Shown one piece after another: positions 7,998 to 63,926 of a stretch of DNA of 64,000 bases. The stretch's first letter is position 1. Each line of letters starts with the position of its first letter. Below the pieces are notes generated by a model. It did no database searches and was not told where the DNA came from. It saw nothing but the letters and a program-made list of their open reading frames with translations. The translations under genes and the position numbers were made by a program. Origin of the DNA: a phage. The stretch is from the NCBI GenBank assembly GCA_004257845.1, contig GCA_004257845.1_4800.1; one strand, given 5' to 3'.

Positions 7998-9536
7998 GTG
8001 ATCAGTCAATCTCGTTATATTAAAATTGTATCAGGGGTCGGAGCAGGCGCGGCTGTTGCAGTTCGCAAACTGTCGCTTCGCATCATGACTTCCAATACAG
8101 TTCTGCCGCCTGGCATTGTAGCAGAATTTTCAACTGCTGATGCCGTTGGATCATATTTCGGTTTTTCTTCCGAAGAATACAAGCGTGCAGCACTGTATTT
8201 CGGATTCATCAGCAAGCAAATCAACTCGCCTGATTCAATCAGCTTTTCTCGCGTTGTATCCACGGCGATTCCTGCAATGGTTATCGGCGACACTGAGCCT
8301 AAAACGCTTGCTACTTTCCAGGCATTCACTGGCGCTATCTTAAGCATCACTTATGACGGCACAGACTACCTGACTGACGCCATCAACCTTTCAGCGGCAA
8401 CAAGTCTTGCCAACGTAGCGGAACTTTTGGAAACGGCAATCAACACCAAGTTTGCAGCAGAAGGTGGCACGTCGGTGCCTGCACTTGCTGATGCAGAAGT
8501 GTATTGGAATGCCAACACCCAGCAGTTCACTTTGGAAGCCGCTCCGTCGACCGCTGGTGCTGGAAACCTTTCGATTAACGTCACAGGTCAACCGACAGAC
8601 CCATCTCAGGCGCTTGGTTGGACGACTACTGGCACCGTTACGGTTGCTGGACAGGGTGTAGCAAGTCCGGTAGAAGCCATCGCGGCATCTGTGGAGATTT
8701 CCAACAACTTTGGCTCATTCCTTTTCGCTGGAGCAGACCGAACGCTGGAAGAAATCACAGCCGTTGCAGCTTGGACTCACTCGCAGAACAACATGTACAT
8801 GTATCTGTTCTCGACTGCATTCGCCAACATCGGCTCATACTATACCGCGTTGAAAGGTTACTCAGGCGTTGGTATGATGATCCGTGCAACTAACCTCGCG
8901 AATGATTACATCGACCAGGCACCTGCTGAAATTCTTGCGGCGACAAACTATAACACTGTAAATGCAACTCAAAACTACATGTATTATCAGTTTGAAACGC
9001 GAAATGTAACCGTATCGACTGATTCACGCGCAGATACTGCTGATCAAAACCGTGCAAACTATATCGGTGCGACTCAGCAAGCTGGTCAAACTCTCGCGTT
9101 CTTCCAGCGTGGTGTTCTGATGGGCGGGTCTACCGCAGCAGTTGACATGAACACTTATGCCAACGAGATGTGGCTTAAATCTGCTATCACTTCTCAGCTG
9201 TTCAGCATGTTCTTGAATCTTGGTCGCGTGCCTGCAAACGAAGAAGGCAAAGCGACTGTCCAAGCCATGATTCAAGTTGCTGTTGACAATGCGAAGGTTA
9301 ACGGCACCATCTCTGTCGGTAAGGCGCTGACGGAAATTCAGAAACAGTACATCACGCAAACCTCCGGTGACAACACTGCTTGGCGGCAGGTTGAGACTAT
9401 CGGTTATTGGTTGACTGTCGATTTTGACACTGAAACCACTTCCGATAACCGCACCGAATACTATGCAACATACACGCTAATCTACTCTAAAGATGATGCT
9501 GTGCGTCGCGTTGAAGGTCGTGACGTTCTTATTTAA
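7998..9536 (+). CDS. tail sheath-like protein (putative)
   Basis: 512-aa ORF with GTG start preceded by AAGAGGA; directly upstream of a tube-like ~155-aa gene and separated from it by a GC hairpin, an arrangement typical of contractile tails; call by position and size only. Confidence 0.4.
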   Translation: MISQSRYIKIVSGVGAGAAVAVRKLSLRIMTSNTVLPPGIVAEFSTADAVGSYFGFSSEEYKRAALYFGFISKQINSPDSISFSRVVSTAIPAMVIGDTEPKTLATFQAFTGAILSITYDGTDYLTDAINLSAATSLANVAELLETAINTKFAAEGGTSVPALADAEVYWNANTQQFTLEAAPSTAGAGNLSINVTGQPTDPSQALGWTTTGTVTVAGQGVASPVEAIAASVEISNNFGSFLFAGADRTLEEITAVAAWTHSQNNMYMYLFSTAFANIGSYYTALKGYSGVGMMIRATNLANDYIDQAPAEILAATNYNTVNATQNYMYYQFETRNVTVSTDSRADTADQNRANYIGATQQAGQTLAFFQRGVLMGGSTAAVDMNTYANEMWLKSAITSQLFSMFLNLGRVPANEEGKATVQAMIQVAVDNAKVNGTISVGKALTEIQKQYITQTSGDNTAWRQVETIGYWLTVDFDTETTSDNRTEYYATYTLIYSKDDAVRRVEGRDVLI

Positions 9537-13013: not shown

Positions 13014-15194
13014 GTGTCTGACTCATTAGAAAAATTTGTGCTTCAATATACGGTGGACTTGAAAGAGTCCATCAATCGTCTTGAGCAATTGCAAGATAAG
13101 GTTGATCAGACAAACAAAAAGGCAAAATCCGCTGGCAAAGATTTCTCTGGAGCATTCAAAGATGTTTTTGGCGAGCTAAAGCCGCTTACTGGTGAGCTAG
13201 GGTCAATTGACGGAATACTTGCGCGGCTGACATATCGTTTTGCCGCGCTCGTTCCTGTTGTCGCAGGATTGGCCGTCGTCGTCAAATCCATCGTTGATGT
13301 TCGAAAAGAATACGAAGCGCAAAGAAAGCTTGGTTTTGAAGCCGGACTCTCTCCAATGGGTGTCGAACAACTACAACGACAGTTGAATGAAAGTTCAGGT
13401 GGCATCCTTGGCGCACAGGGGTCGCGAGACTTAATCAGCAAAGCTTCTAATCTGGCATTCAATGCATACACCAACCCCGATGTGATGAACAAGGACAACT
13501 TGTTGTTGAACAAGATGGGGACAAGTCCTTTCAACAGTAACGGCGGCATCAAAGACACGAATCAGCTGCTTGATGAAATTGGAACAAAGCTGAGAAGTGT
13601 GAATGAGCAAACCGCTCGTGCTATTGGTGCCCTGGCAGGTTTTACCGCCGATGAAGTCCGCGCCCTTCGTGAGCGCAACCAGTCTGTGAAAGAAAGCACG
13701 CGCATAAGCGACGAAGAAACCGCGAAGCTGCAAAGACAGCAAGCTGCTCTTGAGACTATACGAAATAGTATGGGGCAAATTCAAGAAGATTGGCGGCGTA
13801 TTGAGTTGGTAATTGGTGAAAATGTCATGCCTGCATTCTCGACTCTTGTCAGCAAAACTGCTGATACAGTCGAAGGATTCCAGATGATGTTTCAGAGAAT
13901 GTCTGACGGATGGAGCGAATTTGTCGACAACTTCATCGCTGACTTGAAACATCCGTTCGACAAGCAGGCCGCTGTCAACGAACGTCACGAAAGAGCGGTT
14001 GACCGATGGATCACCCAAATGGCTGATGGCGATGTTAAACGCCAAAGGAATCAAGAACAGAACGCCGCTGAACAACGTTCTGCACAGGCTCTTTTTACTC
14101 GTGACATAAATCTTTTTTCAAGTGCTGTGTCAACCTTTGCTGGCGTGATTGATGAGCGTCAAGCTTGGGCGGCATGGGCAGGTGAAATCGGGCGCAGCGC
14201 AGGGCAATCCGCGATGCCTGGAACACCAGCATTGAATACTGGCGCGACCGTAGGGAATAATCTTGGGTCAGGGAATCCGACAGCATATGACTCAATATAT
14301 GAGGAAGCTTCAAAACGCTATGGCATACCTGTAGCAATGATGAAGGCTGTAACTGAAGTCGAATCTGGATTCAATCCAAATGCTGTGAGCGGAGCAGGCG
14401 CGACTGGTTTGATGCAAATCATGCCTTCTAACTTCAAGGGTCTTGGTATCACAGACGGCAACGACCCTAGACAAAACATTATGGGCGGCGCTCAACTGTT
14501 GAAAGAGTATTTAAACGCTGCCAACGGCGATTGGAATCTTGCGCTGACGATGTATCACGGTGGCTACGACCGCAGCGGCTGGGGCAAGAATACACGCGCT
14601 TATCCTGGAAAGGTCATGGCTGCTCTCGACCGACAATCCAATGGTGAGTATGCCACGGCAGCGCCGCAAGGTGCACCAGTTACTCCAGTACTTAGCGGTA
14701 GCGGAGCGGAAGCACCAAAGGGCCGTTATGCACCAGTACAAGGTCAATCGCGCCAAACGGTGCAATACAGGCAATTGCAAGAAGCCATTGCAGGATACCT
14801 GAACGTACCAGTTGAGCAGTTGATGCAGGGACAAGTCAACAAAGGTGATATTGACTTTGCTCAAACTTACCTTAAGCTCGGAACGCAAAGGGATTATATT
14901 AAAAATATGCAGCTGGCTTCAACTCCAGGTGTAAGACCGAACATTCAAGCCGAAGCGATGAAAAACGCTCGTCTTGCTGCATTCCAACTTGAAGCGTTCC
15001 AGAAATATGGCGGCGACCTTTCCGCGAATAGTCGACCTGGTGGGCGTGATATTACTATGGGTCAGAAAAACGTTGTCATCAACGTCAACGGCGCCCAAGA
15101 CCCACGCAGCACGGCATTCGAAACGAAACGGGTGCTTGAACAAGATGATATCAACGACATAAACAACCTTACTGCTACACCTTTGAAGTGGTGA
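13014..15194 (+). CDS. tail tape measure protein with lytic transglycosylase (SLT) domain
   Basis: 726 aa, GTG start after AAGGGG; coiled-coil-like N-terminal region; SLT motifs EVESGFNPNAVSGAGATGLMQIMP and MYHGGY (about nt 14300-14580). Confidence 0.7.
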   Translation: MSDSLEKFVLQYTVDLKESINRLEQLQDKVDQTNKKAKSAGKDFSGAFKDVFGELKPLTGELGSIDGILARLTYRFAALVPVVAGLAVVVKSIVDVRKEYEAQRKLGFEAGLSPMGVEQLQRQLNESSGGILGAQGSRDLISKASNLAFNAYTNPDVMNKDNLLLNKMGTSPFNSNGGIKDTNQLLDEIGTKLRSVNEQTARAIGALAGFTADEVRALRERNQSVKESTRISDEETAKLQRQQAALETIRNSMGQIQEDWRRIELVIGENVMPAFSTLVSKTADTVEGFQMMFQRMSDGWSEFVDNFIADLKHPFDKQAAVNERHERAVDRWITQMADGDVKRQRNQEQNAAEQRSAQALFTRDINLFSSAVSTFAGVIDERQAWAAWAGEIGRSAGQSAMPGTPALNTGATVGNNLGSGNPTAYDSIYEEASKRYGIPVAMMKAVTEVESGFNPNAVSGAGATGLMQIMPSNFKGLGITDGNDPRQNIMGGAQLLKEYLNAANGDWNLALTMYHGGYDRSGWGKNTRAYPGKVMAALDRQSNGEYATAAPQGAPVTPVLSGSGAEAPKGRYAPVQGQSRQTVQYRQLQEAIAGYLNVPVEQLMQGQVNKGDIDFAQTYLKLGTQRDYIKNMQLASTPGVRPNIQAEAMKNARLAAFQLEAFQKYGGDLSANSRPGGRDITMGQKNVVINVNGAQDPRSTAFETKRVLEQDDINDINNLTATPLKW

Positions 15195-18655: not shown

Positions 18656-21394
18656 ATGCAAAAGTTTGACACAAACCTGTTGCAAAACCTTAAGTGGATG
18701 CAGAACAATGCACCAAACATTACATCTTTGGTGCAAAAGAAAAGTGACTGGTATGAAAGATACCAAGATCAGTTTTGGACTGACTGGTACAATAACATTT
18801 TTAACATTGACACTTGTGATGCAATGGGCATTTATATTTGGTGCGACATTCTTTGCATACCAAGAGACTTTGTGGACTTAAGCAATTATGAGCACAACTG
18901 GGCGTTTGGACCGACGCGCGACAACTTTGAAGGTGCGGACAACATCGGCGGCAACTTCTTTGGTGCTGGCGGGAAGGTTGTAAAGAATATCGAAGAAGCG
19001 CGCATACTTCTTAAGCTTCGTTATCTGACGCTTACAAGTGATGGCCGCATCGAAAGTATCAACCGCATGCTTAAGTGGATTTTTAACCGTGGAGAGGCTT
19101 GGGATTACTCTTCATCACGCTACGCATATGTGACCGACAATACTCAAGGTGCGGTGTCTTCATCTGAATCAACAAATGGCTCATTCCTTCTGTACGACTG
19201 GCAAGGGTCAACTGAGATTCAGCATGATTATAAGCAGATACTTTTAAGCCATGGCAACAATGCCGGGCTGACCATCAGCGGAGTGTCAGGCACCGTGTCA
19301 CGGATGGCGCACCCAGATTGGTACTCATGGGGAAATGGTTCCGGCACAGGGCTTGTCGGCGGCGACACCAGACAGTATGGTGGGCCTGATTACTATGGGC
19401 AGTTGTGTGGTGATTACCCAGGCGAGGCCATAGAGAATTTTGCCAACGCAGTAAGGGTCATCAAGACGGCTTCAAGCGGTGAGCCTGTGTATTCTTTGGC
19501 CAATAATCCAAGTGCCAAATCAATTTCGCTTCCTTCGCAGGCTGGCGTCAACGTTTGCTATAGCTTCTACATAAAGGTGCTTTCTGAAAATGTCGCTTCT
19601 GTTTCTGTTACAGAGAATAGTGATGCATCGAGTAATGGAAAGCTGTTTGACCCCGTCACTGGACAGTTCAACTTAGACTCGTCCTTGAGTTATTTCATCA
19701 CAGGCAAGTTTGATGGGGTGAGAAGGGAATCAAGCCGTGGTGGCATAAAAGCAATCGGCGGCGATTGGTATCGAATCTGGATTGTAGAGCAGACGGCAAC
19801 CGATGCTTCTGGAGTAAGTACCAGCTTTTCAATAGAGTTGAAGGCAACTGCCGCTGGATCAACTCAAACTCGTGAATTGCCTGAAGGGTCTGACGCTCTT
19901 TTGTTTGGATACTCGATTTGCGTCTGCGACCCTGTTCAGAATCCAAATGGACCTGAGCCTTATTTTTATGGAACGCAAAACCCTCCTTCTGACGGAACAG
20001 CAATCCTGTCTGTAACGGCGGGAACGCTCAATAACATCTCCTGTGCAAACGGACCGCTGACGACAAGAAACGGTGTAGTTGGCGAGTCATTCATGCAACC
20101 TGGCTCATCACTTGCATACTCTGGCTCAATCGGCGGCTACCCGTACCCAGGGAACGCCACGCTGATTGCAGAGACTGATGGAATCAGACGCTCATGGAAC
20201 GTTAGCAGGCTGGATGGAGCACCGCCGCCGCCGACCGCCGACTATTACATGGAATACGTCATCGGACCTTATTTCGCCAACAACCTGTCTGACAACTTTA
20301 AGACGCTAGTTGGCGACAGGAATGAAGGATTCTTGCCAGCAAATGCCGGAATACGCTGGCAGCTTTACCAAGAAGTCGCAGACTTATCTGATATTGATTT
20401 GACTGTCAGCGACATAACGGACACGCGAGTAGGATTTGAAACGGAAGGTGTTGCGTGGATTAACACTGATGGCATCATCAGAGTTGGCGGCATTAACGAG
20501 TGGCCACTGAACAACTTCAACGGTGTGATACGCCAACTTGAATCTTTGAAAGGTGTTAACCAAGTCGTCGATGGCGCTTTTGTCAACGACTATTCAATCT
20601 CCAAGGCTTCTCGCGATGACTTTGGCCGTGAAATACCGCGCGCAGCCATCACAAACTATTGGCGATATACTCAGCCTAATGATGGAACTTCATTTGGCAA
20701 TATCATTGAGGATGGCGCAAACACTGTCACAGCGACGCCAATCAGCGGTGTGCCCAACCAGTTCCCATCATTCAAGCTTTCCGCTACAATAGGGACTGTG
20801 CCAGCATCCGGTTATGCACGCGCTGTACTTGCTACTAAATACACTGGCACCCTGACTGGCCCTTTGTCATTTATCGCAATAGTCAAAAACAACACGGTTA
20901 ACGGTCAAAAACTTTTTGTAACTGTACCGGATGGGATGGGTGGCTATATCCCTAAATTCTACAACATAGGCGCAGGTGATTTGCAACGTATCGAAATTGA
21001 CCTTGCCGCTGAGATTGTTGAAGGCGCTACCTGGGATGGATCAACAGGCGGCATCAGCATCGGTTTGATATCAGGGAAAGACTTGCCGACCGAAGTTGGT
21101 ACGACTCTTGAACTTGATATTTTAAGCTTGATGCTTGTGTCTGGTAATACGATGAATGCGCTTGCAATTTCAACAAGCGAAGATTTCGCAAAGAAAACTG
21201 CGACTTCTATATACATCAAAAACCCAGGATCACTTGCCACTGGAGTTCAATTGATTGCTTCTAATGGTGATGTTGTAGCAACAGTAAACTTTCCGAGAAG
21301 TGCTGCTGGTGGTTATGTTTCAAGCATGAACATAACTGACTTAACTGGTGATTGGGCATCAACCCTTTTATCAAAAATTAAATACATCGTGTAG
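18656..21394 (+). CDS. large baseplate/tail fibre-associated structural protein
   Basis: 912-aa ORF after GAGGAA RBS; Gly/Ser/Thr-rich; upstream of tail fibre gene. Confidence 0.45.
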   Translation: MQKFDTNLLQNLKWMQNNAPNITSLVQKKSDWYERYQDQFWTDWYNNIFNIDTCDAMGIYIWCDILCIPRDFVDLSNYEHNWAFGPTRDNFEGADNIGGNFFGAGGKVVKNIEEARILLKLRYLTLTSDGRIESINRMLKWIFNRGEAWDYSSSRYAYVTDNTQGAVSSSESTNGSFLLYDWQGSTEIQHDYKQILLSHGNNAGLTISGVSGTVSRMAHPDWYSWGNGSGTGLVGGDTRQYGGPDYYGQLCGDYPGEAIENFANAVRVIKTASSGEPVYSLANNPSAKSISLPSQAGVNVCYSFYIKVLSENVASVSVTENSDASSNGKLFDPVTGQFNLDSSLSYFITGKFDGVRRESSRGGIKAIGGDWYRIWIVEQTATDASGVSTSFSIELKATAAGSTQTRELPEGSDALLFGYSICVCDPVQNPNGPEPYFYGTQNPPSDGTAILSVTAGTLNNISCANGPLTTRNGVVGESFMQPGSSLAYSGSIGGYPYPGNATLIAETDGIRRSWNVSRLDGAPPPPTADYYMEYVIGPYFANNLSDNFKTLVGDRNEGFLPANAGIRWQLYQEVADLSDIDLTVSDITDTRVGFETEGVAWINTDGIIRVGGINEWPLNNFNGVIRQLESLKGVNQVVDGAFVNDYSISKASRDDFGREIPRAAITNYWRYTQPNDGTSFGNIIEDGANTVTATPISGVPNQFPSFKLSATIGTVPASGYARAVLATKYTGTLTGPLSFIAIVKNNTVNGQKLFVTVPDGMGGYIPKFYNIGAGDLQRIEIDLAAEIVEGATWDGSTGGISIGLISGKDLPTEVGTTLELDILSLMLVSGNTMNALAISTSEDFAKKTATSIYIKNPGSLATGVQLIASNGDVVATVNFPRSAAGGYVSSMNITDLTGDWASTLLSKIKYIV

Positions 21395-21404
21395 AGGAAC
21401 GGCA

Positions 21405-23192
21405 ATGCCAACACTTATTAACAGACCTTTCGCGCAAAGCGGTGATGTATCCGTGGTGCCGGATGCAAGTCCAAGCGGTTATGTGAACTTCCAGCGCGGC
21501 TACACCCCTGACTATGCACTTGCCCTGGAAGCCGGAAACGTCGCCGCGAAAGCGGTTGAACGTGAGTCGATGAACTGGTTGCTGAATCTGATCACCGACA
21601 ACCTTATGTTCATCCAGGACCACGGCGCTCAACAGTATTTCTCGTCTGACTTGAAGCCAGACGGATACCCGAAAAATGCCATCGTTGTCAGCAACTCTGG
21701 CACCCCTTCAGCGCCTGAATGGCGCATTTTCCAGAGTGCGGTAGACGGCAACACCAGCGCAGTCCCAGCTAACGGCGAAACGGAATCTTGGCAGGAATTG
21801 ACGCTGCCTAGCGAAGCGAGAAAATATATTCCTATGCCTGCTGGCGGCGATGCGCAAAACCCGTATTTTGTTCGCGGACTGATTTCAAACTTTGTGGACT
21901 TTGATAATATCACGACTTCCACAACTATTGTCATTCAATCTGATGCCGTTGCCGCTCTCTGCTCTAACATCCCGAACGCGGTTGGTGCGACGAAGGTTGC
22001 AGGCCGTCTCCAGGTTTGCGCTTGGCAGGTTAATGCGCAGACTTTCGCCCTGCAACAATACACGTCAATGAACGGATATGTTTTCACCCGCTCTTATACT
22101 TCTGGTGCTTGGAGTGCCTGGATTCAAAATGCTACTGTTCAAGACGTGCAAATTGGAACGCCGAATCTTGCATCAGGTAAAGGCGCACAAGATATAATCC
22201 TTACCGTTCCAGCAGGTTATTCATGGCCTCCGTCAGCAGGTAGTCGCCTGACCATCGTTAATGATGTCACGACCACCGGACCTGTCACCGTGACCATTGG
22301 TGCAAACAAAGTTGCAGTCCTTGGATTCGACGGCGGCGAGCTGCCAGCAGGGTCCATCGTCGGTCTTCTTCCTTTTACTATTATTTATGACGGCACCGTT
22401 TGGCGTCTTCTTCAAGCGTTCGGCGCGGCGCAAATCGGTGTCGATGCTAGTGAGCCGCAACAGTTTGTTACAAAGCGCCAACTCGATGCTTTGGCCGCGA
22501 AGTTGATCACTATGGGTGATGTGTTCGAAGTCGGTGAGACTCGATTCTTGACTAATGGCACCAACCCAAATACTAAACTGGGCGCTTACGGTCAGGTATG
22601 GACCAGGTTGCCTGATAACATGGTCATCAGGACGTCTGGCACGGCAAGAAACGGTCTTGACACTGGAGGTGCAGACTCTGTTACTCTTACCGCCGCCATG
22701 CTTCCTCTGCACAATCACAGCGTGAACATAACTACGCGACAGAGTGGTCCATGGTCCAATACCACTGGAGACGCAGGCAACCATAACCACACAGGCGATA
22801 CCAGTCAAAACGGTGCTCACGTGCACGGAATGGATTCAGCAGGCAACCACCACCATGACAGTAGCTGGGGTGAATCAAATACGACTGATGCGCGGTATGG
22901 CGTGTATGATGGGACGCACAACAACTTCGGAAGTCGAAAGGGTGGCGACTGGGACAACTATAAATACAACACCTCAACTAACGGCAACCACGTTCACAAT
23001 ATTCAATCTTCTGGGTCACACACTCATGGGTTGAATATAAATTACGCTGGCAATCACAGCCATGGATATACCCTCCCAGCTCACACTCACGATGTGGTCG
23101 GTAACACTGGCGATGCAGGGCAGGCCGTCCCAACGGCTGTTTCAACTCTGCCGCGATATGTCGTCTTGAACGGCTGGTACAGAAGCGCATAA
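21405..23192 (+). CDS. tail fibre protein with histidine-rich HxH repeats
   Basis: ATG at 21405 after GAGGAACGG; C-terminal repeats NHNHTGD, AHVHG, NHHHD, HVHNIQSSGSHTHG, NHSHGYTLPAHTHD resembling metal-coordinating HxH motifs of tail fibre tips. Confidence 0.55.
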   Translation: MPTLINRPFAQSGDVSVVPDASPSGYVNFQRGYTPDYALALEAGNVAAKAVERESMNWLLNLITDNLMFIQDHGAQQYFSSDLKPDGYPKNAIVVSNSGTPSAPEWRIFQSAVDGNTSAVPANGETESWQELTLPSEARKYIPMPAGGDAQNPYFVRGLISNFVDFDNITTSTTIVIQSDAVAALCSNIPNAVGATKVAGRLQVCAWQVNAQTFALQQYTSMNGYVFTRSYTSGAWSAWIQNATVQDVQIGTPNLASGKGAQDIILTVPAGYSWPPSAGSRLTIVNDVTTTGPVTVTIGANKVAVLGFDGGELPAGSIVGLLPFTIIYDGTVWRLLQAFGAAQIGVDASEPQQFVTKRQLDALAAKLITMGDVFEVGETRFLTNGTNPNTKLGAYGQVWTRLPDNMVIRTSGTARNGLDTGGADSVTLTAAMLPLHNHSVNITTRQSGPWSNTTGDAGNHNHTGDTSQNGAHVHGMDSAGNHHHDSSWGESNTTDARYGVYDGTHNNFGSRKGGDWDNYKYNTSTNGNHVHNIQSSGSHTHGLNINYAGNHSHGYTLPAHTHDVVGNTGDAGQAVPTAVSTLPRYVVLNGWYRSA

Positions 23193-54604: not shown

Positions 54605-54710
54605 CCAGCCAGCAGCGGCTAAGTCATTGATTTGCATAACAAGCGGCGAAAGGGATGGATTTCTTTTATACGTATCAAACAGTACACCACGCACCACGGT
54701 CCGCAATCCT

Positions 54711-56283
54711 ATTTGCACTATGATTTGTGTACGTTTATAGCCATAATGAACATCAATCTGCACTTGAATATAATGTCCATCCATTGTATAATTCACACTA
54801 TTAATTTGCACTATGGGATTTTGCACTATGAGTCAAGATTATGTAGCGATGCCTGAAGACTTTGAAGACCCGCGATTCGCAGAGCACAATCAGGCTTTAT
54901 TCGATGAGTTCATTGACCTTGTTATTCAGGGCCATGACATGCGCGCAGCTTTTGCACTAGTATTTGGAATGGAAGTTGCAACGGATAACTACACTGGCCA
55001 GCGAATCCTTTGCGCACAACGCAATCCGTACTACAAAATGCGCTTCAAAAAGCGTATGGAAGAGATGCCACTCAAGGATTTGTGGAGCGTAAAAGGTGCA
55101 ATTCACAATTTGGTCAAGCTTGTGCGTGATCCAGAAGTCGCGGCGTCAGCCAAGCTTAATGCTATTCGTGAACTGAATATCATCTACGGCATCACGATGA
55201 TTGATGAAAACGGCAATAGTAAAATGGGCCGTTCCATGGACGATTTCTACAAGGATTTTGGAGAGGCAGCCAAAGAAGGTGAGCAATTCTCCCGCCACTA
55301 GCCAATTTGCACTATAAAACGGCCCTAGAACACATTTTCTCCACTTCTAGGGCCATCGGTAATACGACGGGGAAGGTTACAACCGTAAACGCGTTAGAAA
55401 GTGTATTATTATAAGTCATCTTTTAGTCACTTTACGTAACAATTTACGACCTTCAACCGTCCAATCGAACGACTCCACCAGCAGATTTGCACTATAACCT
55501 AAGACGATGCGCCCTTTCTCGTTATCGACCCGCCAACAAGTCTCGAATAGCATTCGATTTGCACTATTAACTATTGCCGCAACTCGCGTAGGATAAGCGC
55601 AATTTGCACTATGGTCGTAAAGGGATAAGGTGCGACCACTTCCGATGGACAACGTAGCGATGAGAATGAGTGTATTCATAAGCCACCAATTTGCACTATG
55701 AAAAGCGACCCCGAAGGGCCGCCATTCGATTAGATAATCTGGAAGGTGTAGGACTTGTTGCCGAACTCGAAGTTTAAGCGTCCAGCTTCCTTAAGCTTCA
55801 TGCGGAAGCGAATGTGCTTGCTATCCGGTAAGCCCAGCGCGGCGAACGCTACGCGGACCGATTTGAACTCGCCTACACCCTCGACCATGACACCGTTACG
55901 GGTAAGACGCTTTTGCGCCACTTCCTTATTATCCCAACTTTTTGCAATACCTTCGCTATTCGAACGGCGATGGGATGGAGTTCCATTTTGCACTACGCAA
56001 TTTGCACTATCGTTTAAACCGCTCTTAACGAAGGCTTCATACTCTTCGTCGGTCATCGCGTCGAGTTCTTCCTGGGTCGGCTCGGACTTTTTAACGACCG
56101 CACGCGCCTTATGCGTTTTTACATCGTTGGGCACTTCCTCGCGCGACTTCGCGTCTGGGATGGGCGACTCGTTGGACGGCTCATCGAGCGCGTTTAAGGA
56201 CTCGATTAACGCTATTACGCGAGTCTCGGCGGTCCGGCGGTCCGCAAATTTTTTGATCGGCTTCGAACCGGAATTTGCATTAT
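54711..56283 (+). repeat. dispersed same-orientation array of 12-bp motif AATTTGCACTAT (at least 11 copies including variants)
   Basis: Copies at about 54711, 54803, 54819, 55304, 55485, 55557, 55601, 55688, 55985, 55999, 56272, all on the + strand; several lie antisense within minus-strand ORFs. Confidence 0.75.
54813..55301 (+). CDS. hypothetical protein
   Basis: ORF; start could be ATG 54813 or 54828 (no clear SD for either); followed by hairpin 55321-55354 (10-bp stem GGCCCTAGAA / TTCTAGGGCC). Confidence 0.4.
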   Translation: MGFCTMSQDYVAMPEDFEDPRFAEHNQALFDEFIDLVIQGHDMRAAFALVFGMEVATDNYTGQRILCAQRNPYYKMRFKKRMEEMPLKDLWSVKGAIHNLVKLVRDPEVAASAKLNAIRELNIIYGITMIDENGNSKMGRSMDDFYKDFGEAAKEGEQFSRH

Positions 56284-56356
56284 AAAATGCAACGAGGTCG
56301 GCGGTCTTAGTTGCGATAACGTCGCCGCTAGTCGAGAAACGATTTAAGCTAACCAT
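55730..56356 (-). CDS. hypothetical protein (CpG-rich island)
   Basis: 208-aa ORF with distinct codon usage; contains antisense motif copies encoding SANCVVQNG. Confidence 0.4.
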   Translation of the reverse strand: MVSLNRFSTSGDVIATKTADLVAFYNANSGSKPIKKFADRRTAETRVIALIESLNALDEPSNESPIPDAKSREEVPNDVKTHKARAVVKKSEPTQEELDAMTDEEYEAFVKSGLNDSANCVVQNGTPSHRRSNSEGIAKSWDNKEVAQKRLTRNGVMVEGVGEFKSVRVAFAALGLPDSKHIRFRMKLKEAGRLNFEFGNKSYTFQII

Positions 56357-56436
56357 AATGAACTCCTATTTGTTAGGGCGCTAGGCGCGAAAGAATTTTA
56401 TTAAAGCGCCGCGCACGACGCTCTAAAAATCCTCTC

Positions 56437-56721
56437 TTACGCTTCGACGAGGGAGAAGGTCTCAAATTCTTCTTCGCCCATAACGAGTAAGATGTTACCG
56501 ATTTCGACCGCTTCGAAGAAGTATCCGTTAACGTTTACTTCGAAGGCTTCGCGGTCCGATTCCGGTAACGCCGCGTAAAGTTTAAAAGCCTCGGCGACCG
56601 TAACCCCACCCGCCTCGATAGTTTGGTCTACGTTCGCGGCGTAGACTTCGGATAAAATTTGTTTTACGCCGTAGTTCTCGACGATAGCGTTACGGATAGA
56701 AGAAACGTTAAGAATAGCCAT
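56437..56721 (-). CDS. hypothetical small protein, paralog A
   Basis: 94 aa; similar to product of 57355-57645 (SIRNAIVE/AIRSARVE, VYxxNVDxTIE, NGxxxxxxEIG). Confidence 0.45.
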   Translation of the reverse strand: MAILNVSSIRNAIVENYGVKQILSEVYAANVDQTIEAGGVTVAEAFKLYAALPESDREAFEVNVNGYFFEAVEIGNILLVMGEEEFETFSLVEA

Positions 56722-56945
56722 TTTAAACTCCTAGTTGGGAGAGGCGTTAACGACCTATTCGTTAACTCATCCCGTCCCGATATGAGTACATTATAATATA
56801 GTGTAGAAAAAAGTAAAGCACTTTTTCGATAAAGATGAGATAAATTATTTTATCTTTTTTCTTTACTTCTTCGTACACTCGCGTATACTTGTTTATATCG
56901 AGACGGGCGATGACCCTTTCTTTTACTACCATCGGGAGTTTTATT

Positions 56946-57248
56946 ATGGCTACTTTAATTTCTTCTCTTCTTACTTACGACGAAGACCGCTTAACCGTCG
57001 CTTCTCTTCTTAAAGCCGTTAACGCAGAATTAGACGGGACCGCTATTAAGGTCCGCGCGTTCGCCTTCGTCGGCCTTTCCTTCGACGATATGAAGTACGT
57101 CGAACGTAGCGCCATCCGCTTCGCGAAGACCGACGACGAAGCCGTTACCCTTATCGAAACCGTAACGCCGCGCGGCGAAGCGCTAATTATCGTCGAGTAT
57201 CTCGATATAGAAGGCTATAAAGCTTATAAACATTTTATCGCAAAATAA
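56946..57248 (+). CDS. hypothetical small protein
   Basis: ATG 56946 preceded by GGGAG; CpG-rich codon usage. Confidence 0.4.
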   Translation: MATLISSLLTYDEDRLTVASLLKAVNAELDGTAIKVRAFAFVGLSFDDMKYVERSAIRFAKTDDEAVTLIETVTPRGEALIIVEYLDIEGYKAYKHFIAK

Positions 57249-57354
57249 CGAAAAGTGCTTTACTTCTTCGTACACTAAGACTATAATGTTTTATATCGAG
57301 AGGGGATGAGGTAGCGAATAGGTCGCTACCCGCCCGACCAACTAGGAGATTATT

Positions 57355-57645
57355 ATGATTACTTTAGCCGCTATCCGTTCCGCTCGCGTCGAGACTTCCG
57401 AAAACTCTAACGTATTTGGCGAAACCTTAGAGAGCGTTTATCTCTCTAACGTAGACGCAACTATCGAATCTATTTATGAGCCGATCAACTTCCTCGACCT
57501 TTACAAGTATCGCGATGAGGACATCGTATCTTGCCGCGTAACCATCAACGGCTTCGTCTATACGATTACCGAAATCGGCGGCGAATATCTCGCGGTCCCG
57601 CAACTCGGCGGCGAAGTAACTTTCTTTAAAATCGTAAGCCTGTAA
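57355..57645 (+). CDS. hypothetical small protein, paralog B
   Basis: 96 aa; similar to product of 56437-56721 but on the opposite strand; RBS AGGAGA. Confidence 0.45.
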   Translation: MITLAAIRSARVETSENSNVFGETLESVYLSNVDATIESIYEPINFLDLYKYRDEDIVSCRVTINGFVYTITEIGGEYLAVPQLGGEVTFFKIVSL

Positions 57646-57656
57646 GGAGAAGGAAG

Positions 57657-57866
57657 ATGACTAATATGAATAATTCTCTTAACGCGCGCGCCCATCGTAC
57701 CGCCGTAATCGATATGTTCCGCGAGCTTAAGGAATTATGCGATAATATGAACGCGATGTTATCCATCGGCGGCTGGGGATACGAAGAAGAGGTTAAATAC
57801 GCGGTTATGCGTCGCCGTCGCGATAACGTCCTTGGGCAAATTAAACGCGCCGGATTATTCCTTTAA
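57657..57866 (+). CDS. hypothetical small basic protein
   Basis: ORF preceded by GGAGAAGGAAG. Confidence 0.4.
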   Translation: MTNMNNSLNARAHRTAVIDMFRELKELCDNMNAMLSIGGWGYEEEVKYAVMRRRRDNVLGQIKRAGLFL

Positions 57867-57892
57867 TTATAATTACCAACAGTTACTAATAG

Positions 57893-57914
57893 GCCGCGCT
57901 TAGTCGCGGCTTTT
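57893..57914 (+). terminator. rho-independent terminator
   Basis: GCCGCG (57893-57898), loop CTTAGT, CGCGGC (57905-57910), then TTTTCTT. Confidence 0.6.
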
Positions 57915-58036
57915 CTTCGCCCCTATCTCGATGCGCTTCTCCGCGAAAACTCCTTTATCCTTCCCTTCGTCGTCGCATAATCTTCGTCGAGATGCTCCTT
58001 AGTTCGTATAACGGGTATTACGTTAAATGGAGAACA

Positions 58037-58110
58037 TCGCGTAAGTCCTTGTTTTATATAGACACCTATATCGGACCGTTAGGGCGGGTCGCGTAAGTCG
58101 TTGTTTTATA
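58037..58110 (+). repeat. 22-bp direct repeat pair TCGCGTAAGTC(C/G)TTGTTTTATA
   Basis: Copies at 58037-58058 and 58089-58110, one mismatch, in a non-coding CpG-rich stretch. Confidence 0.6.
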
Positions 58111-58386
58111 AAGGCGCAAAACTTTCCCTTCGTTCCGAACTAAAACGAGGAATATGCCGACCCTTCGTCCGAAAATAGTACGCATGCGAAATTACATGCA
58201 TCTCGAATAATTCCCACCGATATTATCCTACAAGCAATCATTCTCTTTCGAATCATTATGCTTCATATTATTATGCGTCGAATCATTCGCTTTCGAATTG
58301 TAACGCTGGAAACTGTAACGGCGATTGATTATTGCGTTCGTGTGGTTTTTAGGGCATGGGTCTTTTGGTGCGTTTTGGTACTTGAT

Positions 58387-58500
58387 GAAATTTGCAGTAC
58401 ACTAATCAAAATACGACACATTTGGTCCACTAACTTTTCAAAGAAAAAGTCCTGGACAGTACCGTACTATTTTGTACCCACAGGAAATTTGCAGTACACT
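58387..58500 (+). repeat. two exact 17-bp copies GAAATTTGCAGTACACT
   Basis: 58387-58403 and 58484-58500; share AATTTGCA core with the upstream motif array. Confidence 0.6.
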
Positions 58501-60314: not shown

Positions 60315-60334
60315 AAGGCGCTTTTCAGCGCCTT
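60315..60334 (-). terminator. stem-loop downstream of fibre gene (possible terminator)
   Basis: AAGGCGC / GCGCCTT stem with 6-nt loop, 8 nt beyond stop at 60342. Confidence 0.45.
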
Positions 60335-60341
60335 GAGTGAA

Positions 60342-62690
60342 TTATTTCGCTGCTTTCAGCGCGGCTATCTCTGCCTTGAGTTCATCAATCTGATCCATCA
60401 ATGCGAGAATAGCCTCGTGGTGCAATGCCGCTGCAACACCTGGAGTGTTTACTGACTTTACGTCGTCCAGAATTGAACCATCGCGCAGGGTGACTGGTGA
60501 AGACTTCGTTTCTGATACTGCTTCAGGAAAATCTTTCTCTACGTCCTGCGCGATGAATCCGTATCCTATTGAGCCATTGGTTTCCAGAACCCATGTGACT
60601 CCTTTGATGTTTCTCATCTTGGATAGTGGATTACTGATACGCTCAATGTTGCTTTTAATTCTTTCGTCAGATGTGTTTCGCCATTCTTGGCATCTTGCTA
60701 TACCATCAGCACCAAATAAATAAGATGCGCTGCTTCCAGTGCCACTTAAAATGTTAAGTTGCGCGCGGTCCAATGCTGTCGTGCCACTTCTGACCCCTCC
60801 GAGCATCCAAGTTCCATCGTACCAGTCGCCGCCAACAGAGTTAATATAGCCTCCTTCTGGTACATTCGCGTAGTTGATCATCCTGATGGCATTTCTTTCT
60901 GAAGCCGCTACCCCAACTGAGTTTAACGGTTGTGCAACGACATCCTTGGGTCTGACGTATGCATCAATATGTAATGCGCCATCAGGTCTTAGTGTGCCAA
61001 TTTGAGTCTCTGCGCCTGGAAAGTACAAAGTCCCAGCTTGGTTGAATGACCATTCTTGCACCCCATTAGATATCACAGCACCTTGTTCAGACGTTAATCC
61101 ATCAATCTTACCGTATGCTTGCAAGAATGCTTGATACGCAATGTTGGTGCCAATTTTATATTCAGATTTTACACTGCCGCCTCTGACAAACGTTCCGGTT
61201 GCAGGTTTTACTGCGTCACCATTAATAACGCTCCAAGTCGTATTCGCAGCAACGAACCCACCAGATGCACGGATTACCCAGACGCCGACAAAACTTGCGG
61301 GAAGCACTTCGTTGTTGGCACCACCATAAATGTTGTTGTATTTGTTGGCGTCAAAAACAGCTTCGCCATAGGACGTTGCACCTGTGGAAATAGCCCTTGT
61401 CTGATACCTTGTTTGTGGGTTTGCAGGACTAAACACCCCAGATGCCCCAGACATTGCTGTCGCGCCCGATCCACCTGTATCAGTTCCGTGAAAGGTGACT
61501 GTACCTATAATGTTTGGCAATCCAGGCTTGGTGATTCTTCCGTCAGTATTACTAAGCCCTTTGTCTCCGCGCGCGAACAAGCCTGCAACAGAACCAGTCT
61601 GCACGCCATTTCTGTCAGGTACACGGAATGTGGTTGATCCATCACCAAGGGAGTATTTGCCTCGTTGAGAATAATCAGCAAGCCAGTCTGCATCGGCGAT
61701 AGGTGACAGCATTTGCGCATACGCCCAAAGCTCAGGCCAGTCAGCACGGTTGAGTAATTGACCATCAGCAACAACTTCATACGGCTGAATATAGGCGCGA
61801 CTATCTCGTAAGTGAAAGTCACCAACGCCATAGTTCATTACGCCGTTCATGCTTGGGCCAACGGTGCCAGTATTTACTAAGTTCTCAACCCAACACTTCG
61901 TCGCGGCATCATAATCATTAACAGGGTCGCCAGCCAGTGGTGTTGGGCCTTGTGGACGAATATTCAACCATGCTTGCGCATTGTCTGCTGATCCGGTGCC
62001 GCCCATGGAAGTTGGAACGATGCTTTGATCAGCAACAGGGCCAAATCCAAAGGCATCTTTCATTCCCTGAATAGTCGTTTGTCCTGTGCCGCCGTTGGAT
62101 ACTGGGATGACAGTTCCAGCATTATATAATTGCGCCCATGGGCTCCAAACTCCATCTACCGCGTTATAAGTCCTTTGGTGTGTAATGTTTTCGTAGTACG
62201 TTGAGTATCTTTGAACGCAACTTTCTATTGATGGTCCAGTTTTTAGGACTTCAAGGACTCCTGCTTGCGCCACTGGGTAATTAAGAGCAAGTTGAGCACT
62301 AGCATTAAAGTCTTGGAAATACTGCCCAAACCAAGAGCCTGTCAGCAAGTTCAGATTTATCCCAGAAGGAAGCACTCCGTAATTCCTTACAGTTCCTGTC
62401 AATGTTGCGGCAGTAGTTCGAATGGAAAGCATGTCACCAGCAGCCCATGCACGCGCTGCAGTCCCTTCCTGTGCACGCTGAACGGTCAGGACATCACCAA
62501 CGACGGCTGTTACTGTGATGATTTCGAATTGGAGGCCTGTTGCAGCGTCTACGATTGTCGCCACTACACGCTCGTTTGCAGCCAAGGTCGGAAAGCCCGA
62601 CCCTGAGCGGATTGTGATTGTGGTGTCTGAAGTCGTCGTTGGCTGAGCGAGCGCGACCTCAAAGTTGTTTTTGAATATTAGCCTTGGCAT
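60342..62690 (-). CDS. tail fibre/tailspike protein with C-terminal intramolecular chaperone (peptidase S74-like) domain
   Basis: C-terminal SDERIKSNIERISNPLSKMRNIKGVTWVLETNGSIGYGFIAQDVEKDFPEAV...coiled coil matches the auto-cleaving chaperone domain of phage fibres/endosialidases; Gly/Thr/Ser-rich body. Confidence 0.65.
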   Translation of the reverse strand: MPRLIFKNNFEVALAQPTTTSDTTITIRSGSGFPTLAANERVVATIVDAATGLQFEIITVTAVVGDVLTVQRAQEGTAARAWAAGDMLSIRTTAATLTGTVRNYGVLPSGINLNLLTGSWFGQYFQDFNASAQLALNYPVAQAGVLEVLKTGPSIESCVQRYSTYYENITHQRTYNAVDGVWSPWAQLYNAGTVIPVSNGGTGQTTIQGMKDAFGFGPVADQSIVPTSMGGTGSADNAQAWLNIRPQGPTPLAGDPVNDYDAATKCWVENLVNTGTVGPSMNGVMNYGVGDFHLRDSRAYIQPYEVVADGQLLNRADWPELWAYAQMLSPIADADWLADYSQRGKYSLGDGSTTFRVPDRNGVQTGSVAGLFARGDKGLSNTDGRITKPGLPNIIGTVTFHGTDTGGSGATAMSGASGVFSPANPQTRYQTRAISTGATSYGEAVFDANKYNNIYGGANNEVLPASFVGVWVIRASGGFVAANTTWSVINGDAVKPATGTFVRGGSVKSEYKIGTNIAYQAFLQAYGKIDGLTSEQGAVISNGVQEWSFNQAGTLYFPGAETQIGTLRPDGALHIDAYVRPKDVVAQPLNSVGVAASERNAIRMINYANVPEGGYINSVGGDWYDGTWMLGGVRSGTTALDRAQLNILSGTGSSASYLFGADGIARCQEWRNTSDERIKSNIERISNPLSKMRNIKGVTWVLETNGSIGYGFIAQDVEKDFPEAVSETKSSPVTLRDGSILDDVKSVNTPGVAAALHHEAILALMDQIDELKAEIAALKAAK

Positions 62691-62728
62691 TTTACGGTCC
62701 TCGTTTTGTCGACAACCGTATTATAACC

Positions 62729-63070
62729 TTAATTTCTTTTGAGAGGAATATGACGGTTGTTGTCATTATTTGGTTTAATAATGAGCATAAAAACGATTAG
62801 AAAGATGATGGCTGATATACTTAATTCAATCAGCGCGGCTTGAGATATAGATTGATCTTCATGATACTGCTTTTGCATTTCTGCTTTCTTCTGAGCGCAA
62901 ACTTCAGGCGATATATAATCACCTTTTGAGTTGCCATAATAAATTTCGCCGTTTTCAGAAATCAGCCTGCCGCAAATATCCGTTTCAGCCTTTGCACTTG
63001 ACATCATAATAACGGTGCCGATGATAGCGGCGATAGTCCAGATTAGCAGTTGTGATAAAGTGTTGTTCAT
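62729..63070 (-). CDS. membrane protein with signal peptide and C-terminal transmembrane segment
   Basis: Start at internal Met (MNNTLSQLLIWTIAAIIGTVIMMSSAKA) preceded by AGAGG; C-terminal ISAIIFLIVFMLII. Confidence 0.4.
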   Translation of the reverse strand: MNNTLSQLLIWTIAAIIGTVIMMSSAKAETDICGRLISENGEIYYGNSKGDYISPEVCAQKKAEMQKQYHEDQSISQAALIELSISAIIFLIVFMLIIKPNNDNNRHIPLKRN

Positions 63071-63266
63071 GATAACCTCTTTAAATTCCCTTCCCATTTC
63101 GGGAAGGGCGATGATTATTTTACGCGAAAGAATAGGCGCGTGCCACACAGCGAGTCCCAACGGCCTTCGCCATCCCATACCGACACAACGCCAGCGGTGA
63201 TGACACCAGCAGAATTGGCGGCATTGGCCCAGGCAAGACGTTTCAACTTCCAACTGCACCAACGAT

Positions 63267-63518
63267 TCACAGTTCGTCTCCAGATTGCAAAATAAGACCT
63301 GTATAGAGGATTGCCAGAGCTAAAGGCGCACCGCTTCCAGCCTCTCTATTCTCTTTAATTTGAAGCGTGTCCTTAAGGAATTGCAATTGAACGTTAAATT
63401 CATTTTCAATCCCAAGCACCACGGCCAATTCTTTTACAGAATCTGCATATGCCTTATCTAGCACTTCTTTTGGTACTTTTAAAGTTAATTCACTTGCCAT
63501 TTTCTTTCCACTCCACAA
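63267..63518 (-). CDS. hypothetical protein
   Basis: ORF. Confidence 0.35.
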   Translation of the reverse strand: MWSGKKMASELTLKVPKEVLDKAYADSVKELAVVLGIENEFNVQLQFLKDTLQIKENREAGSGAPLALAILYTGLILQSGDEL

Positions 63519-63711
63519 ATGTGCTGCCGATTGTTTCTCTGTTTAGCAGGTATCTGCCGCGCATTCCATGAAGGCTAAACTCAACCGTCGATGGATTAGA
63601 TTTTGAAAGCCACATCGCTTGACCGTCGAATGGACCGCCTACGCATGTATATTTCGCTTTTGGCTCACTCCTTTTGGGACGTTTTGCCCGCTCTTTGATT
63701 GATAGTCTCAT
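63490..63711 (-). CDS. hypothetical protein
   Basis: ORF overlapping neighbours. Confidence 0.3.
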   Translation of the reverse strand: MRLSIKERAKRPKRSEPKAKYTCVGGPFDGQAMWLSKSNPSTVEFSLHGMRGRYLLNRETIGSTFVEWKENGK

Positions 63712-63926
63712 CAGTCTTCACCTTGAGATTCCAGACAAGTAAGGACAAGCCACGTCATCGGAAGAATCAAAACCAGAGAAATGAGGGACCAGATAGACCA
63801 GCACAAGATGACAGACTTGAATGTGTGAACGTCGCCAAACGCAGCAGTAAAACAGAATCCCATAACAAATGCAATAGCGGTGGAATGGTTGTCTATGGCT
63901 TTGATGGCACGGTCGATGAGTTTCAT
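63711..63926 (-). CDS. small two-transmembrane protein (holin-like topology)
   Basis: 71 aa with two hydrophobic segments AIAFVMGFCFTAAF and ILCWSIWSLISLVLILPMTWLVL and a charged C-terminus. Confidence 0.35.
   Translation of the reverse strand: MKLIDRAIKAIDNHSTAIAFVMGFCFTAAFGDVHTFKSVILCWSIWSLISLVLILPMTWLVLTCLESQGED

Follow-up and report, generated by a model that had tools for sequence, protein, structure and literature searches.

Among the closest described systems is the T-shaped fibre of Wifcevirus phages (Gp114 of ManiWeber/Bas99), which has a conserved N-terminus and variable RBDs and is second to a conserved fibre of the tail locus (PMC11990801). Orthologues of the fibre studied here, gp24 of ECML-117 and gp27 of vB_Eco4M-7, were detected by mass spectrometry (MS) in CsCl-purified preparations of these two O157:H7 Wifcevirus phages (PMC7048862). 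Outside the genus, EP335 gp13 is the lateral tail fibre of a Kuravirus/Gordonclarkvirinae podovirus. It bound O157 and O26 cells, and LC-ESI-MS of the recombinant protein placed a cleavage at Ser621|Asp622 (PMC8217332). In the T5-like siphovirus DT57C, the fibre LtfA is required to infect O-antigen-producing hosts (PMC10713586).

The window, the whole stretch of 64,000 nucleotides analysed here, is DNA of a Wifcevirus-like E. coli myovirus. An earlier note on this DNA placed a second fibre gene for a 782-aa protein on the opposite strand, and the ORF is found exactly there (60342..62690, minus strand). It has an ATG start and encodes an 82.9 kDa precursor that contains the protein strings quoted in that note (...NTSDERIKSNIERISNPLSKMRNIKGVTWVLETNGSIGYGFIAQDVEKDFPEAV...). 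The product, fibre 2, matches phrog_6921 'tail fiber protein' over aa 23-782 (E=3.5e-235) and all its PHROG matches are fibres. The syntenic gene is labelled 'tail fiber protein' in ECML-117, FEC19, WFC, WFH, Bas98-101 and Mansfield. With a probability of roughly 0.85, we read the gene as encoding the T-shaped second fibre of Humolli et al. 2025, the variable tail fibre through which this E. coli myovirus of Wifcevirus type binds its receptor, with recombination inside the gene driving host range. The fibre type, the odd gene position and the swapping of modules are already published (Humolli et al. 2025, PMC11990801), and the gene is an ordinary new allele. Only its RBD1 insert allele looks new.

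Like the T-shaped fibre, fibre 2 lies at the same locus and has the order anchor-RBD1-RBD2-IMC, where IMC is the intramolecular chaperone. The Bas99 fibre is only 54% identical to it overall and 16% identical in RBD2. The Bas phages depend on the O16 O-antigen, while the window allele has an RBD2 of the ECML-117/EP335 type and an RBD1 insert with no counterpart in the homologues and phages compared. ECML-117 gp24 is 82-83% identical to fibre 2. From aa 521 onwards the identity rises to 97-99%, but upstream the two differ: aa 401-520 are only 56% identical and the DNA is unalignable over aa ~361-460. For vB_Eco4M-7 gp27 the overall identity is 78%. EP335 gp13 is 86% identical in RBD2 and 83% in the IMC, with the cleavage serine aligned. 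However, its anchor and knob are not shared (12-15% identity), its RBD1 scaffold is only 56% identical, and it is predicted to belong to a branched fibre network with gp12 on a podovirus tail. Residues 539-825 of LtfA (PDB 8hqz chain d) align to aa 233-515 of fibre 2 (domain E=1.2e-109). LtfA differs in its length of 1076 aa and in having another N-terminus, anchored in the LtfC ring; the matched region is unresolved in the structure (PMC10713586).

Modules of the fibre-2 protein

Fibre 2 is built, in order, of an N-terminal anchor, a pyocin-type knob, RBD1 with a hypervariable insert, RBD2 and an S74 chaperone. The corresponding features of the window, with the evidence for each in brackets, are:

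60342..62690, minus strand: fibre-2 coding sequence (ORF; phrog_6921; syntenic annotations)
62391..62690, minus strand: N-terminal anchor domain, aa 1-100 (conservation in 17 Wifcevirus fibres; match to 8jov_1)
62106..62390, minus strand: knob domain, aa ~101-195, variable module 1 (profile and Foldseek matches to R2-type pyocin fibre)
61131..61994, minus strand: RBD1, aa 233-520, a conserved scaffold around the insert (invariant columns; LtfA match)
61311..61568, minus strand: hypervariable insert of RBD1, aa ~375-460, variable module 2 (DNA unalignable to the closest relative, L021)
60675..61130, minus strand: RBD2, aa 521-672, variable module 3, which travels with the IMC (identity to ECML-117, EP335 gp13 and a podovirus fibre)
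60666..60671, minus strand: predicted autocleavage site Ser674|Asp675 (TSDERIK; alignment with EP335 gp13)
60345..60668, minus strand: intramolecular chaperone fragment, aa 675-782, 108 aa, 11.7 kDa, with a long terminal helix (PF13884, profiles, AF2)

The anchor is 91-100% identical among the 17 Wifcevirus fibres. Over aa 4-97 it matches the N-terminal part of PDB 8jov_1, which accounts for 18 chains of its entry and is, by a 100% tblastn match, the tail fibre of the Ralstonia podovirus GP4. Fibres or spikes of other phages, among them phages of Klebsiella, Yersinia and Burkholderia, begin with the same module. The knob is only 44-85% identical among relatives. In a family profile search aa 104-190 matched the R2-type pyocin fibre (6ct8_A, E=3.7e-7; 6cl6_A, E=1.1e-6), and Foldseek placed the AF2 model of the knob (pLDDT 82-90) on 6ct8/6cl6 at probability 1.0. 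By both sequence profile and fold, it is a knob of the R-type pyocin kind (PA0620-type fibres). At NCBI, homologues carry the name 'pyocin knob domain-containing S74 family peptidase'.

In the family alignment the invariant columns of RBD1 cluster densely over aa 251-394 and 448-511. The Pfam family Collar (PF07484) matches it below threshold (E=0.033) and recurs in 36 of the 47 family members, at best with E=9e-4. Published HHpred and SSF88874 assignments to a gp12-type RBD1 fold exist for homologues. Aligning our family alignment with T4 gp12 by hhalign was negative (probability 0.2), and with T5 pb1 the sole match was a low-complexity Ala/Ser shaft repeat in insertion columns. Only the IMC and the knob were modelled with confidence in the AF2 models (aa 491-782 and aa 100-520), RBD1 and RBD2 reaching a pLDDT of 25-50 (31-35 over aa ~560-640); these are monomer models, and interdigitated trimers call for multimer prediction. 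Foldseek with the monomers returned only the MyRF ICA domain for the IMC and the R2 pyocin fibre for the knob. The fold labels 'gp12-like' for RBD1 and 'T5-like' for RBD2 were not reproduced by these models and alignments.

The S74 auto-chaperone claimed for the C-terminal end is present. Residues 674-725 score 48 bits with Pfam PF13884 (Peptidase_S74; curated cutoff 22; E=1.5e-12), a domain recognised in all 47 family members scanned. The catalytic motif S-D-x-x-x-K is found as S674-D675-E-R-I-K679. These three residues (S674, D675 and K679) are invariant in the 47 homologues, in a region that is otherwise 11-99% identical. The same dyad, C-terminal position and trimerising helix are found in the S74 domains of endosialidase K1F, the GA-1 neck appendage, S16 gp37 and eukaryotic MYRF; in the window protein the domain would template a fibre tip as opposed to a triple beta-helix spike. 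Profile matches of the IMC were 6f45_A (S16 gp37), 7dc3_A (MyRF), the C-terminus of 8jov_1 and 3gud_A. The IMC model has a pLDDT of 79-94, with 88-94 in the helix at aa ~749-781, and Foldseek matched it to the ICA domain of MyRF (7dc3) at TM 0.61-0.63. The terminal helix had been taken for a coiled coil that follows the S74 segment. It is instead part of the chaperone domain, as the 6f45_A and 7dc3_A matches extend to aa 780.

The locus and its neighbours

The gene lies far from the tail module and on the opposite strand, as the earlier note had stated. On a 68,842-bp contig that encodes the identical protein, it starts ~14 kb from the sheath gene and is separated from fibre 1 by ~27.5 kb one way round and 37 kb the other. 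TerL is 1.4 kb away and transcribed divergently. The fibre-2 gene is the last of a leftward six-gene block divergent from TerL, and it keeps this place and the same neighbours in each of the 17 relatives examined and on the contig with the identical protein. The features around it, and the other fibre gene, are:

21348..23192, plus strand: fibre 1, the conserved fibre of the tail module (phrog_5717/4277)
63980-63953, minus strand: sigma-70-like site, 10/12 matches (motif scan)
62729..63926, minus strand: five small co-oriented upstream genes of 71, 73, 77, 51 and 113 aa, in one leftward block with the fibre (gene calls)
62691..62728, minus strand: 38-nt intergenic leader with a GAGGA ribosome-binding site and TATAAT, a putative promoter (sequence)
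60315..60334, minus strand: intrinsic-terminator-like hairpin, 8 nt past the stop codon (scan; RNA fold)

The five small genes are kept in all relatives. Of the ten small genes nearby, considered as candidates for a chaperone or adaptor of the fibre, none has a known PHROG function. The leader lies within a 121-nt alignment of 10 phages with a mean identity of 99%. The hairpin (-13.6 kcal/mol, z=-3.3) is followed by a U-rich tract, and WFC has a terminator annotated at the same place; the leftward block would end there. A late-promoter signal shared by the fibre and structural genes was considered and rejected. Its candidate, GGTTATAATA, is conserved upstream of the fibre across the genus and is not enriched (3 in the window versus 2.6 expected).

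Fibre 1 bears out the wording 'second fibre' for the gene under study. It is of the Pbunavirus type, its N-terminus matching the tail fibre gp47 of PDB 9b45 (9b45_2) with E=8e-32. Paralogy of the two fibres was rejected, as no similarity between them is detectable.

Processing, attachment and exchange

By analogy with homologues, three fibre-2 chains would fold together with the trimeric chaperone as template. Each chain would then cut itself between Ser674 and Asp675, which align with the mapped Ser621|Asp622 of EP335 gp13, to yield the 11.7-kDa fragment and a 71.2-kDa mature fibre. Virion proteomics of the two orthologues gave different pictures. In CsCl-purified ECML-117, 18 of the 20 detectable tryptic peptides of the mature part were seen and none of the seven from the IMC (P=4e-5). 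The CsCl-purified vB_Eco4M-7 preparation contained six IMC peptides of gp27 with 500 of its 2011 PSMs, or 4.6 PSMs per residue in the IMC versus 2.25 in the mature part. So either release of the chaperone is not universal in the genus or the vB_Eco4M-7 sample held unprocessed fibre. In some members, such as vB_Eco4M-7, the virion may retain the S74 chaperone. That the module is kept in the mature virion, uncleaved or cleaved and still bound, would account for the abundance of these peptides. We hold it to be unlikely given the ECML-117 result, from an IMC 98-99% identical to that of the window, the cleavage of recombinant EP335 gp13 (PMC8217332) and the invariance of the catalytic dyad in 47 homologues. 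In addition, gp27 had the highest protein score of its preparation, above capsid and sheath, which suggests that free or unprocessed fibre banded with the phage. A fibre that degrades O-antigen or capsule in addition to binding it is far less probable still. S74 chaperones were first described in endosialidase tailspikes, and the record of a relative, SP13, labels the gene 'endo-N-acetylneuraminidase', in all likelihood a label borrowed from the S74 domain name. The Pfam scan of all 47 members turned up no beta-helix and no sialidase, lyase or other hydrolase domain, the PDB matches include none, and every PHROG match is a fibre; nothing here supports the word 'spike' in the earlier note. With PF13884 matched and orthologues present in CsCl-purified phage preparations, its proposal of an S74-bearing virion protein is not refuted. 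As to how that protein is attached, fibre 2 might hang on fibre 1 or on the enlarged 912-aa wedge protein as LtfB does on LtfA in DT57C. In T5-like phages and Gordonclarkvirinae, homologues with RBD1-RBD2-IMC are joined to the tail by a proximal fibre (PMC11990801, PMC8217332), the relation of the two Wifcevirus fibres is stated to be unclear (PMC11990801), and similarity of the 912-aa baseplate protein to its ~500-aa Pbunavirus counterpart is confined to the N-terminal ~185 aa. However, fibre 2 has an anchor of its own, with a homologue in the GP4 fibre of a solved tail structure, and fibre 1 has neither detectable similarity to it nor a complementary module. We consider a branched arrangement improbable. 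As a receptor-binding fibre of the T-shaped type, fibre 2 would dock on the tail through its anchor and bind O-antigen, as homologues suggest.

The earlier note had seen in the separate location and orientation of the gene the mark of an exchangeable host-range cassette, that is, a self-contained and relocatable unit. Its view of the gene as a variable host-range component stands. The fibre-2 gene is by far the most divergent of its region, and the conserved leader and terminator could serve as bounds of such a unit. However, comparison of the locus across relatives did not reveal cassette swapping: the position and neighbours do not change in any of the 17 relatives, identity stays at 86-100% over the first 100 codons and, in DNA, over the flanks on either side, and it is the inner modules that are replaced. 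Nucleotide comparison places breakpoints within the gene near aa 100, 200, 375, 460 and 520-540, and the sub-segments shared with the window vary from relative to relative. Moreover, other phage groups carry the same modules inside their structural module, which speaks against location and orientation as the cause of exchange. Exchange of the gene as a whole is thus very unlikely. As judged from the alignments, exchange instead involves three or more modules smaller than the gene, each with its own breakpoints, namely the knob, the ~85-codon RBD1 insert and RBD2 with the IMC. The DNA of the RBD1 insert cannot be aligned even to L021, which is 97-100% identical on both sides of it. As protein, the insert reaches at most 49% identity among 178 homologues and 40% in the phage collection. 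For RBD2 the identity is 97% to P0002-P0006 and ECML-117, 95% to an SU10-like podovirus fibre (P0095) and 86% to EP335 gp13 (P0112), but only 11-22% to most Wifcevirus fibres; the nucleotide identity of RBD2 to the podovirus contig is 85-98%. Modules of fibre 2 recur in the SU10-like podovirus, in a lambdoid tail-tip locus and in T5-like phages. A foreign origin by base composition was rejected, the GC content of sub-regions (0.435-0.537, against 0.43-0.44 in the flanks and a window mean of 0.46) having no clear step at the breakpoints.

Receptor and host range

Host range in these phages would evolve through homologous recombination inside the fibre-2 gene. Crossovers would fall in the conserved anchor, the RBD1 scaffold, the linker at aa 461-520 and the 3' flank, so that the knob, the RBD1 insert and RBD2 with the IMC would be swapped independently, from donors that include podoviruses and siphoviruses. 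The receptor predicted from sequence is most likely the O157-type O-antigen, and possibly also O26, because RBD2 is so close to those of ECML-117, a phage isolated on O157:H7, and EP335 gp13. The prediction is tentative since the RBD1 insert of the window is unlike that of any O157 phage compared. It is possible, though doubtful, that fibre 2 is a three-site adhesin, its knob, RBD1 insert and RBD2 being exchangeable independently of one another, and that the insert brings a novel receptor or combination of receptors. Should the insert function as a second binding site, the phage would have one or more receptors that neither parent allele predicts. The allele would then be a natural test of alternative versus cooperative action of the two RBDs.

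Conceptually nothing here is new: the two-fibre architecture of Wifcevirus, fibres with dual RBDs, S74 chaperones and the exchange of RBDs across morphotypes are all published. The fibre-2 gene would determine the E. coli serotypes to which the phage can adsorb, and Wifcevirus phages are candidates for the biocontrol of O157. A nucleotide-level map of crossover sites and swappable modules could guide the engineering of such fibres, and the match in RBD2 yields a testable prediction of the receptor (O157/O26).

Fibre 2 as a second, chaperone-bearing fibre

The fibre 2 gene (60342..62690, minus strand) begins with ATG and encodes 782 aa; the coordinates, strand, length and sequence strings reported for it in the earlier note are all exact in the window. 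Residues 674-725 match Peptidase_S74 (Pfam PF13884, "chaperone of endosialidase") at 48 bits (curated cutoff, 22), bearing out the proposed C-terminal auto-chaperone segment, and PHROG 6921 ("tail fiber protein") covers the protein end to end (E=3.5e-235). Both matches are far beyond chance. The coiled coil said to follow the chaperone exists as a helix but lies inside the domain. Existing GenBank records call the product of this gene a tail fibre and give it a Peptidase_S74 domain. Humolli et al. 2025 (PMC11990801) described two fibres in Wifcevirus: a conserved one in the tail locus, and a second, "T-shaped" one in which a Gp12-like RBD1 and a T5-like RBD2 precede an intramolecular chaperone (IMC). 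The N-terminus of the T-shaped fibre is conserved and its RBDs are horizontally scattered. Given these precedents, the finding is a correct rediscovery, and only the fibre 2 allele is specific to the window.

The window DNA is 86-95% identical to Escherichia phages ECML-117, vB_Eco4M-7, FEC19, WFC, WFH, Mansfield and Bas98-101, all in or near the genus Wifcevirus. Its plus-strand structural module codes for a maturation protease, major head protein, baseplate hub and wedge, and endolysin, and includes:

7998-9536, plus strand: sheath
13014-15194, plus strand: lytic tail protein
18656-21394, plus strand: 912-aa baseplate protein
21348-23192, plus strand: fibre 1, the tail-module fibre

At its N-terminus, fibre 1 shows homology to gp47, the tail fibre of PDB 9b45 (E=8e-32), and the first ~185 aa of the 912-aa baseplate protein match wedge/triplex proteins of 9b45, 8env and 8eon. 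Because of these homologies we consider fibre 1 the ancestral Pbunavirus-type fibre. Comparing fibre 1 with fibre 2 detected no similarity, so the label "second fibre" is correct. The Pbunavirus wedge/triplex counterparts (9b45_v, 8env_K) are ~500 aa long, and the baseplate protein has ~700 aa beyond its matched part that could be a docking platform for fibre 2. The listed fibre 1 start, a GTG at 21348, gives a 47-nt overlap with the end of the 912-aa gene (21348-21394). Matches to PHROG and PDB begin at about residue 17-20, and translation probably starts downstream of this GTG.

The fibre 2 locus

A Logan contig of 68,842 bp (SRR7944809) codes for an identical fibre 2 protein and adds ~4.8 kb absent from the window, with TerL and portal. 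Fibre 2 closes a leftward block of six genes on one strand (71, 73, 77, 51, 113 and 782 aa), which is divergent from TerL; 1.4 kb separates the TerL and fibre 2 starts. The sheath gene, at a distance of about 14 kb, and fibre 1, at about 27.5 kb, are on the opposite strand. Around fibre 2 are found:

60334-60315, minus strand: hairpin, then a U-rich tract, 8 nt past the fibre 2 stop codon (-13.6 kcal/mol, z=-3.3)
upstream of fibre 2, minus strand: 38-nt leader with GAGGA and TATAAT, within a 121-nt stretch 99% conserved in ten phages
62729-63070, minus strand: 113-aa gene directly upstream, kept in nearly all relatives
~54700-58400: counterpart of the Mansfield terminal repeat, by alignment to MK903282 1-3673

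The WFC record has a terminator annotated at the same spot as the hairpin, and the gene arrangement is the same in all 17 relatives inspected. The 113-aa protein has no match in PHROG. By eye, hydrophobic residues cluster towards each of its ends (LLIWTIAAIIGTVIMM... and AIIFLIVFMLII); its sequence suggests a membrane protein co-transcribed with fibre 2. In Mansfield, PhageTerm predicted a 3.7-kb direct terminal repeat that includes TerS, the small terminase, and stops ~1.8 kb short of the fibre block. Between TerS and TerL there are therefore both the end of the repeat and the entire leftward block. The terminal-repeat region is present twice in the WFC, WFH and Ro157lw records (71-72 kb).

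Modules and their exchange

An alignment of 47 diverged homologues, PDB profile searches and two AlphaFold models gave five modules:

aa 1-100: anchor, matching the N-terminus of PDB 8jov chain 1 (18 chains in the entry)
aa ~101-195: knob, with profile matches at E of about 1e-6 to 4e-7 to 6ct8 and 6cl6, fibres of R2-type pyocins
aa 233-520: RBD1, a hypervariable insert between two blocks (aa 251-394 and 448-511) rich in invariant residues
aa 521-672: RBD2
aa 673-782: IMC, with Ser674, Asp675 and Lys679 invariant in 47/47 sequences

The 8jov chain is the tail fibre of Ralstonia podovirus GP4 (100% tblastn identity), and the anchor module also forms the N-terminal end of fibres and spikes in Klebsiella, Yersinia, Burkholderia and other phages. 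The knob matches the pyocin fibres in fold as well (probability 1.0, segment pLDDT 82-90). RBD1 aligns with residues 539-825 of DT57C LtfA (domain E=1.2e-109), an O-antigen-dependent lateral fibre of a T5-like phage whose RBD1-matching part is not resolved in its structure. The published "gp12-like" and "T5-like" labels found no independent confirmation: hhalign of the family alignment was negative against T4 gp12 and T5 pb1. A sub-threshold but recurrent Collar match (PF07484, 36/47 members) is the sole support here for a gp12 relationship. The AlphaFold monomer models are unreliable across both RBDs. The modelled IMC fold resembles the MyRF ICA domain (TM 0.61-0.63), and the profile of the 47-sequence family matches S16 gp37, MyRF and the GA-1 appendage.

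Among the 17 relatives, identity to fibre 2 is 91-100% in the anchor, 51-84% in the knob, about 80-85% in the RBD1 scaffold (AV128 excepted) and 36-57% over aa 401-520 (AV128 18%). RBD2 is 97% identical in ECML-117, about 60% in FEC19, Ro157lw and EC150, and 4-16% in the remainder. Flanking DNA is 86-98% identical immediately 3' of the stop and 94-98% upward from the start codon, with no alignable DNA for the 3' half of the gene in most relatives. The closest relative contig is 97-100% identical except in two places: identity is patchy over aa 81-360, and aa ~375-460 are replaced by sequence that does not align. FEC19 is 98-100% identical to aa 540 and 70% thereafter, and Bas100 is replaced from aa ~500 up to the last codons. 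The AV128 fibre, at the same locus (L015 2844-4841), has only 665 aa, with 91% identity in the anchor and 4-19% from aa 233; at least one Wifcevirus has therefore swapped RBD1 too.

Related modules occur elsewhere. RBD2 and IMC are 85-98% identical in nucleotides to an SU10-like podovirus contig, which encodes an RBD1-RBD2-IMC unit as a 719-aa fibre within its structural module (L023 6001-8160). A lambdoid tail-tip locus (L024 6001-7761, ~61-kb contig) has an RBD1-RBD2-IMC unit lacking anchor and knob in a 586-aa protein adjoining a 702-aa side-tail-fibre-like gene, and related units are also found in T5-like phages. From this pattern of identities, breakpoints and occurrences, the gene contains at least three independently exchanged modules, with anchor and locus fixed and crossovers falling in its conserved segments. 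The earlier idea of an exchangeable host-range cassette thus holds for exchange. Separate location and orientation as its cause or evidence we reject, since locus and anchor are constant and the breakpoints lie inside the gene. Genomes of Citrobacter amalonaticus and C. farmeri commonly encode S74-bearing, RBD1-like fibres ~480-500 aa long (P0139-P0151, on contigs of up to 5 Mb). These presumably belong to prophages or tailocins, and they extend the donor pool past lytic coliphages.

Probable chaperone release and candidate receptor

The domain content of fibre 2, its intact catalytic dyad, its conserved anchor and the boundaries of its transcription unit are directly observed; cleavage is expected from homologues. 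The podovirus tail fibre EP335 gp13 shares 86% identity with fibre 2 over RBD2 and 83% over the IMC. It forms SDS-resistant oligomers, binds O157 and O26 cells and is cut between Ser621 and Asp622, which removes 11.8 kDa (PMC8217332). Its Ser621 aligns with Ser674, with 108 residues after the serine in both, and fibre 2 would self-cleave after Ser674 into 71.2 and 11.7 kDa products.

Virion proteomics, proposed earlier as a check, is published for orthologues (PMC7048862). The ECML-117 fibre is 97-99% identical to fibre 2 from aa 521 on, and a CsCl-purified preparation of this phage yielded 18/20 detectable mature tryptic fibre peptides and 0/7 detectable IMC peptides (hypergeometric P=4e-5), as predicted by IMC cleavage and release. 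CsCl-purified vB_Eco4M-7 gave the opposite, with six IMC peptides making up 500 of 2011 spectra, per residue twice as many as the mature fibre. As this fibre scored above capsid and sheath in its preparation, co-banded unprocessed fibre is a plausible source. With the two samples in disagreement, Wifcevirus may not always shed the chaperone. Overall, the earlier observation is confirmed and its interpretation supported in part.

All four BASEL Wifcevirus isolates need O-antigen (PMC11990801), and the fibre 2 RBD2 is of the ECML-117/EP335 type. By analogy, our best guess for the receptor of this putative binding domain is O157, possibly also O26. The nearest published fibre is 82-83% identical to fibre 2 and the nearest unannotated ones 83-86%. 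Among 178 homologues nothing exceeds 49% identity to the RBD1 insert, and in the phage collection nothing exceeds 40%; on these comparisons the insert is provisionally unique. The practical value is modest: a receptor prediction and a breakpoint map for fibre engineering.
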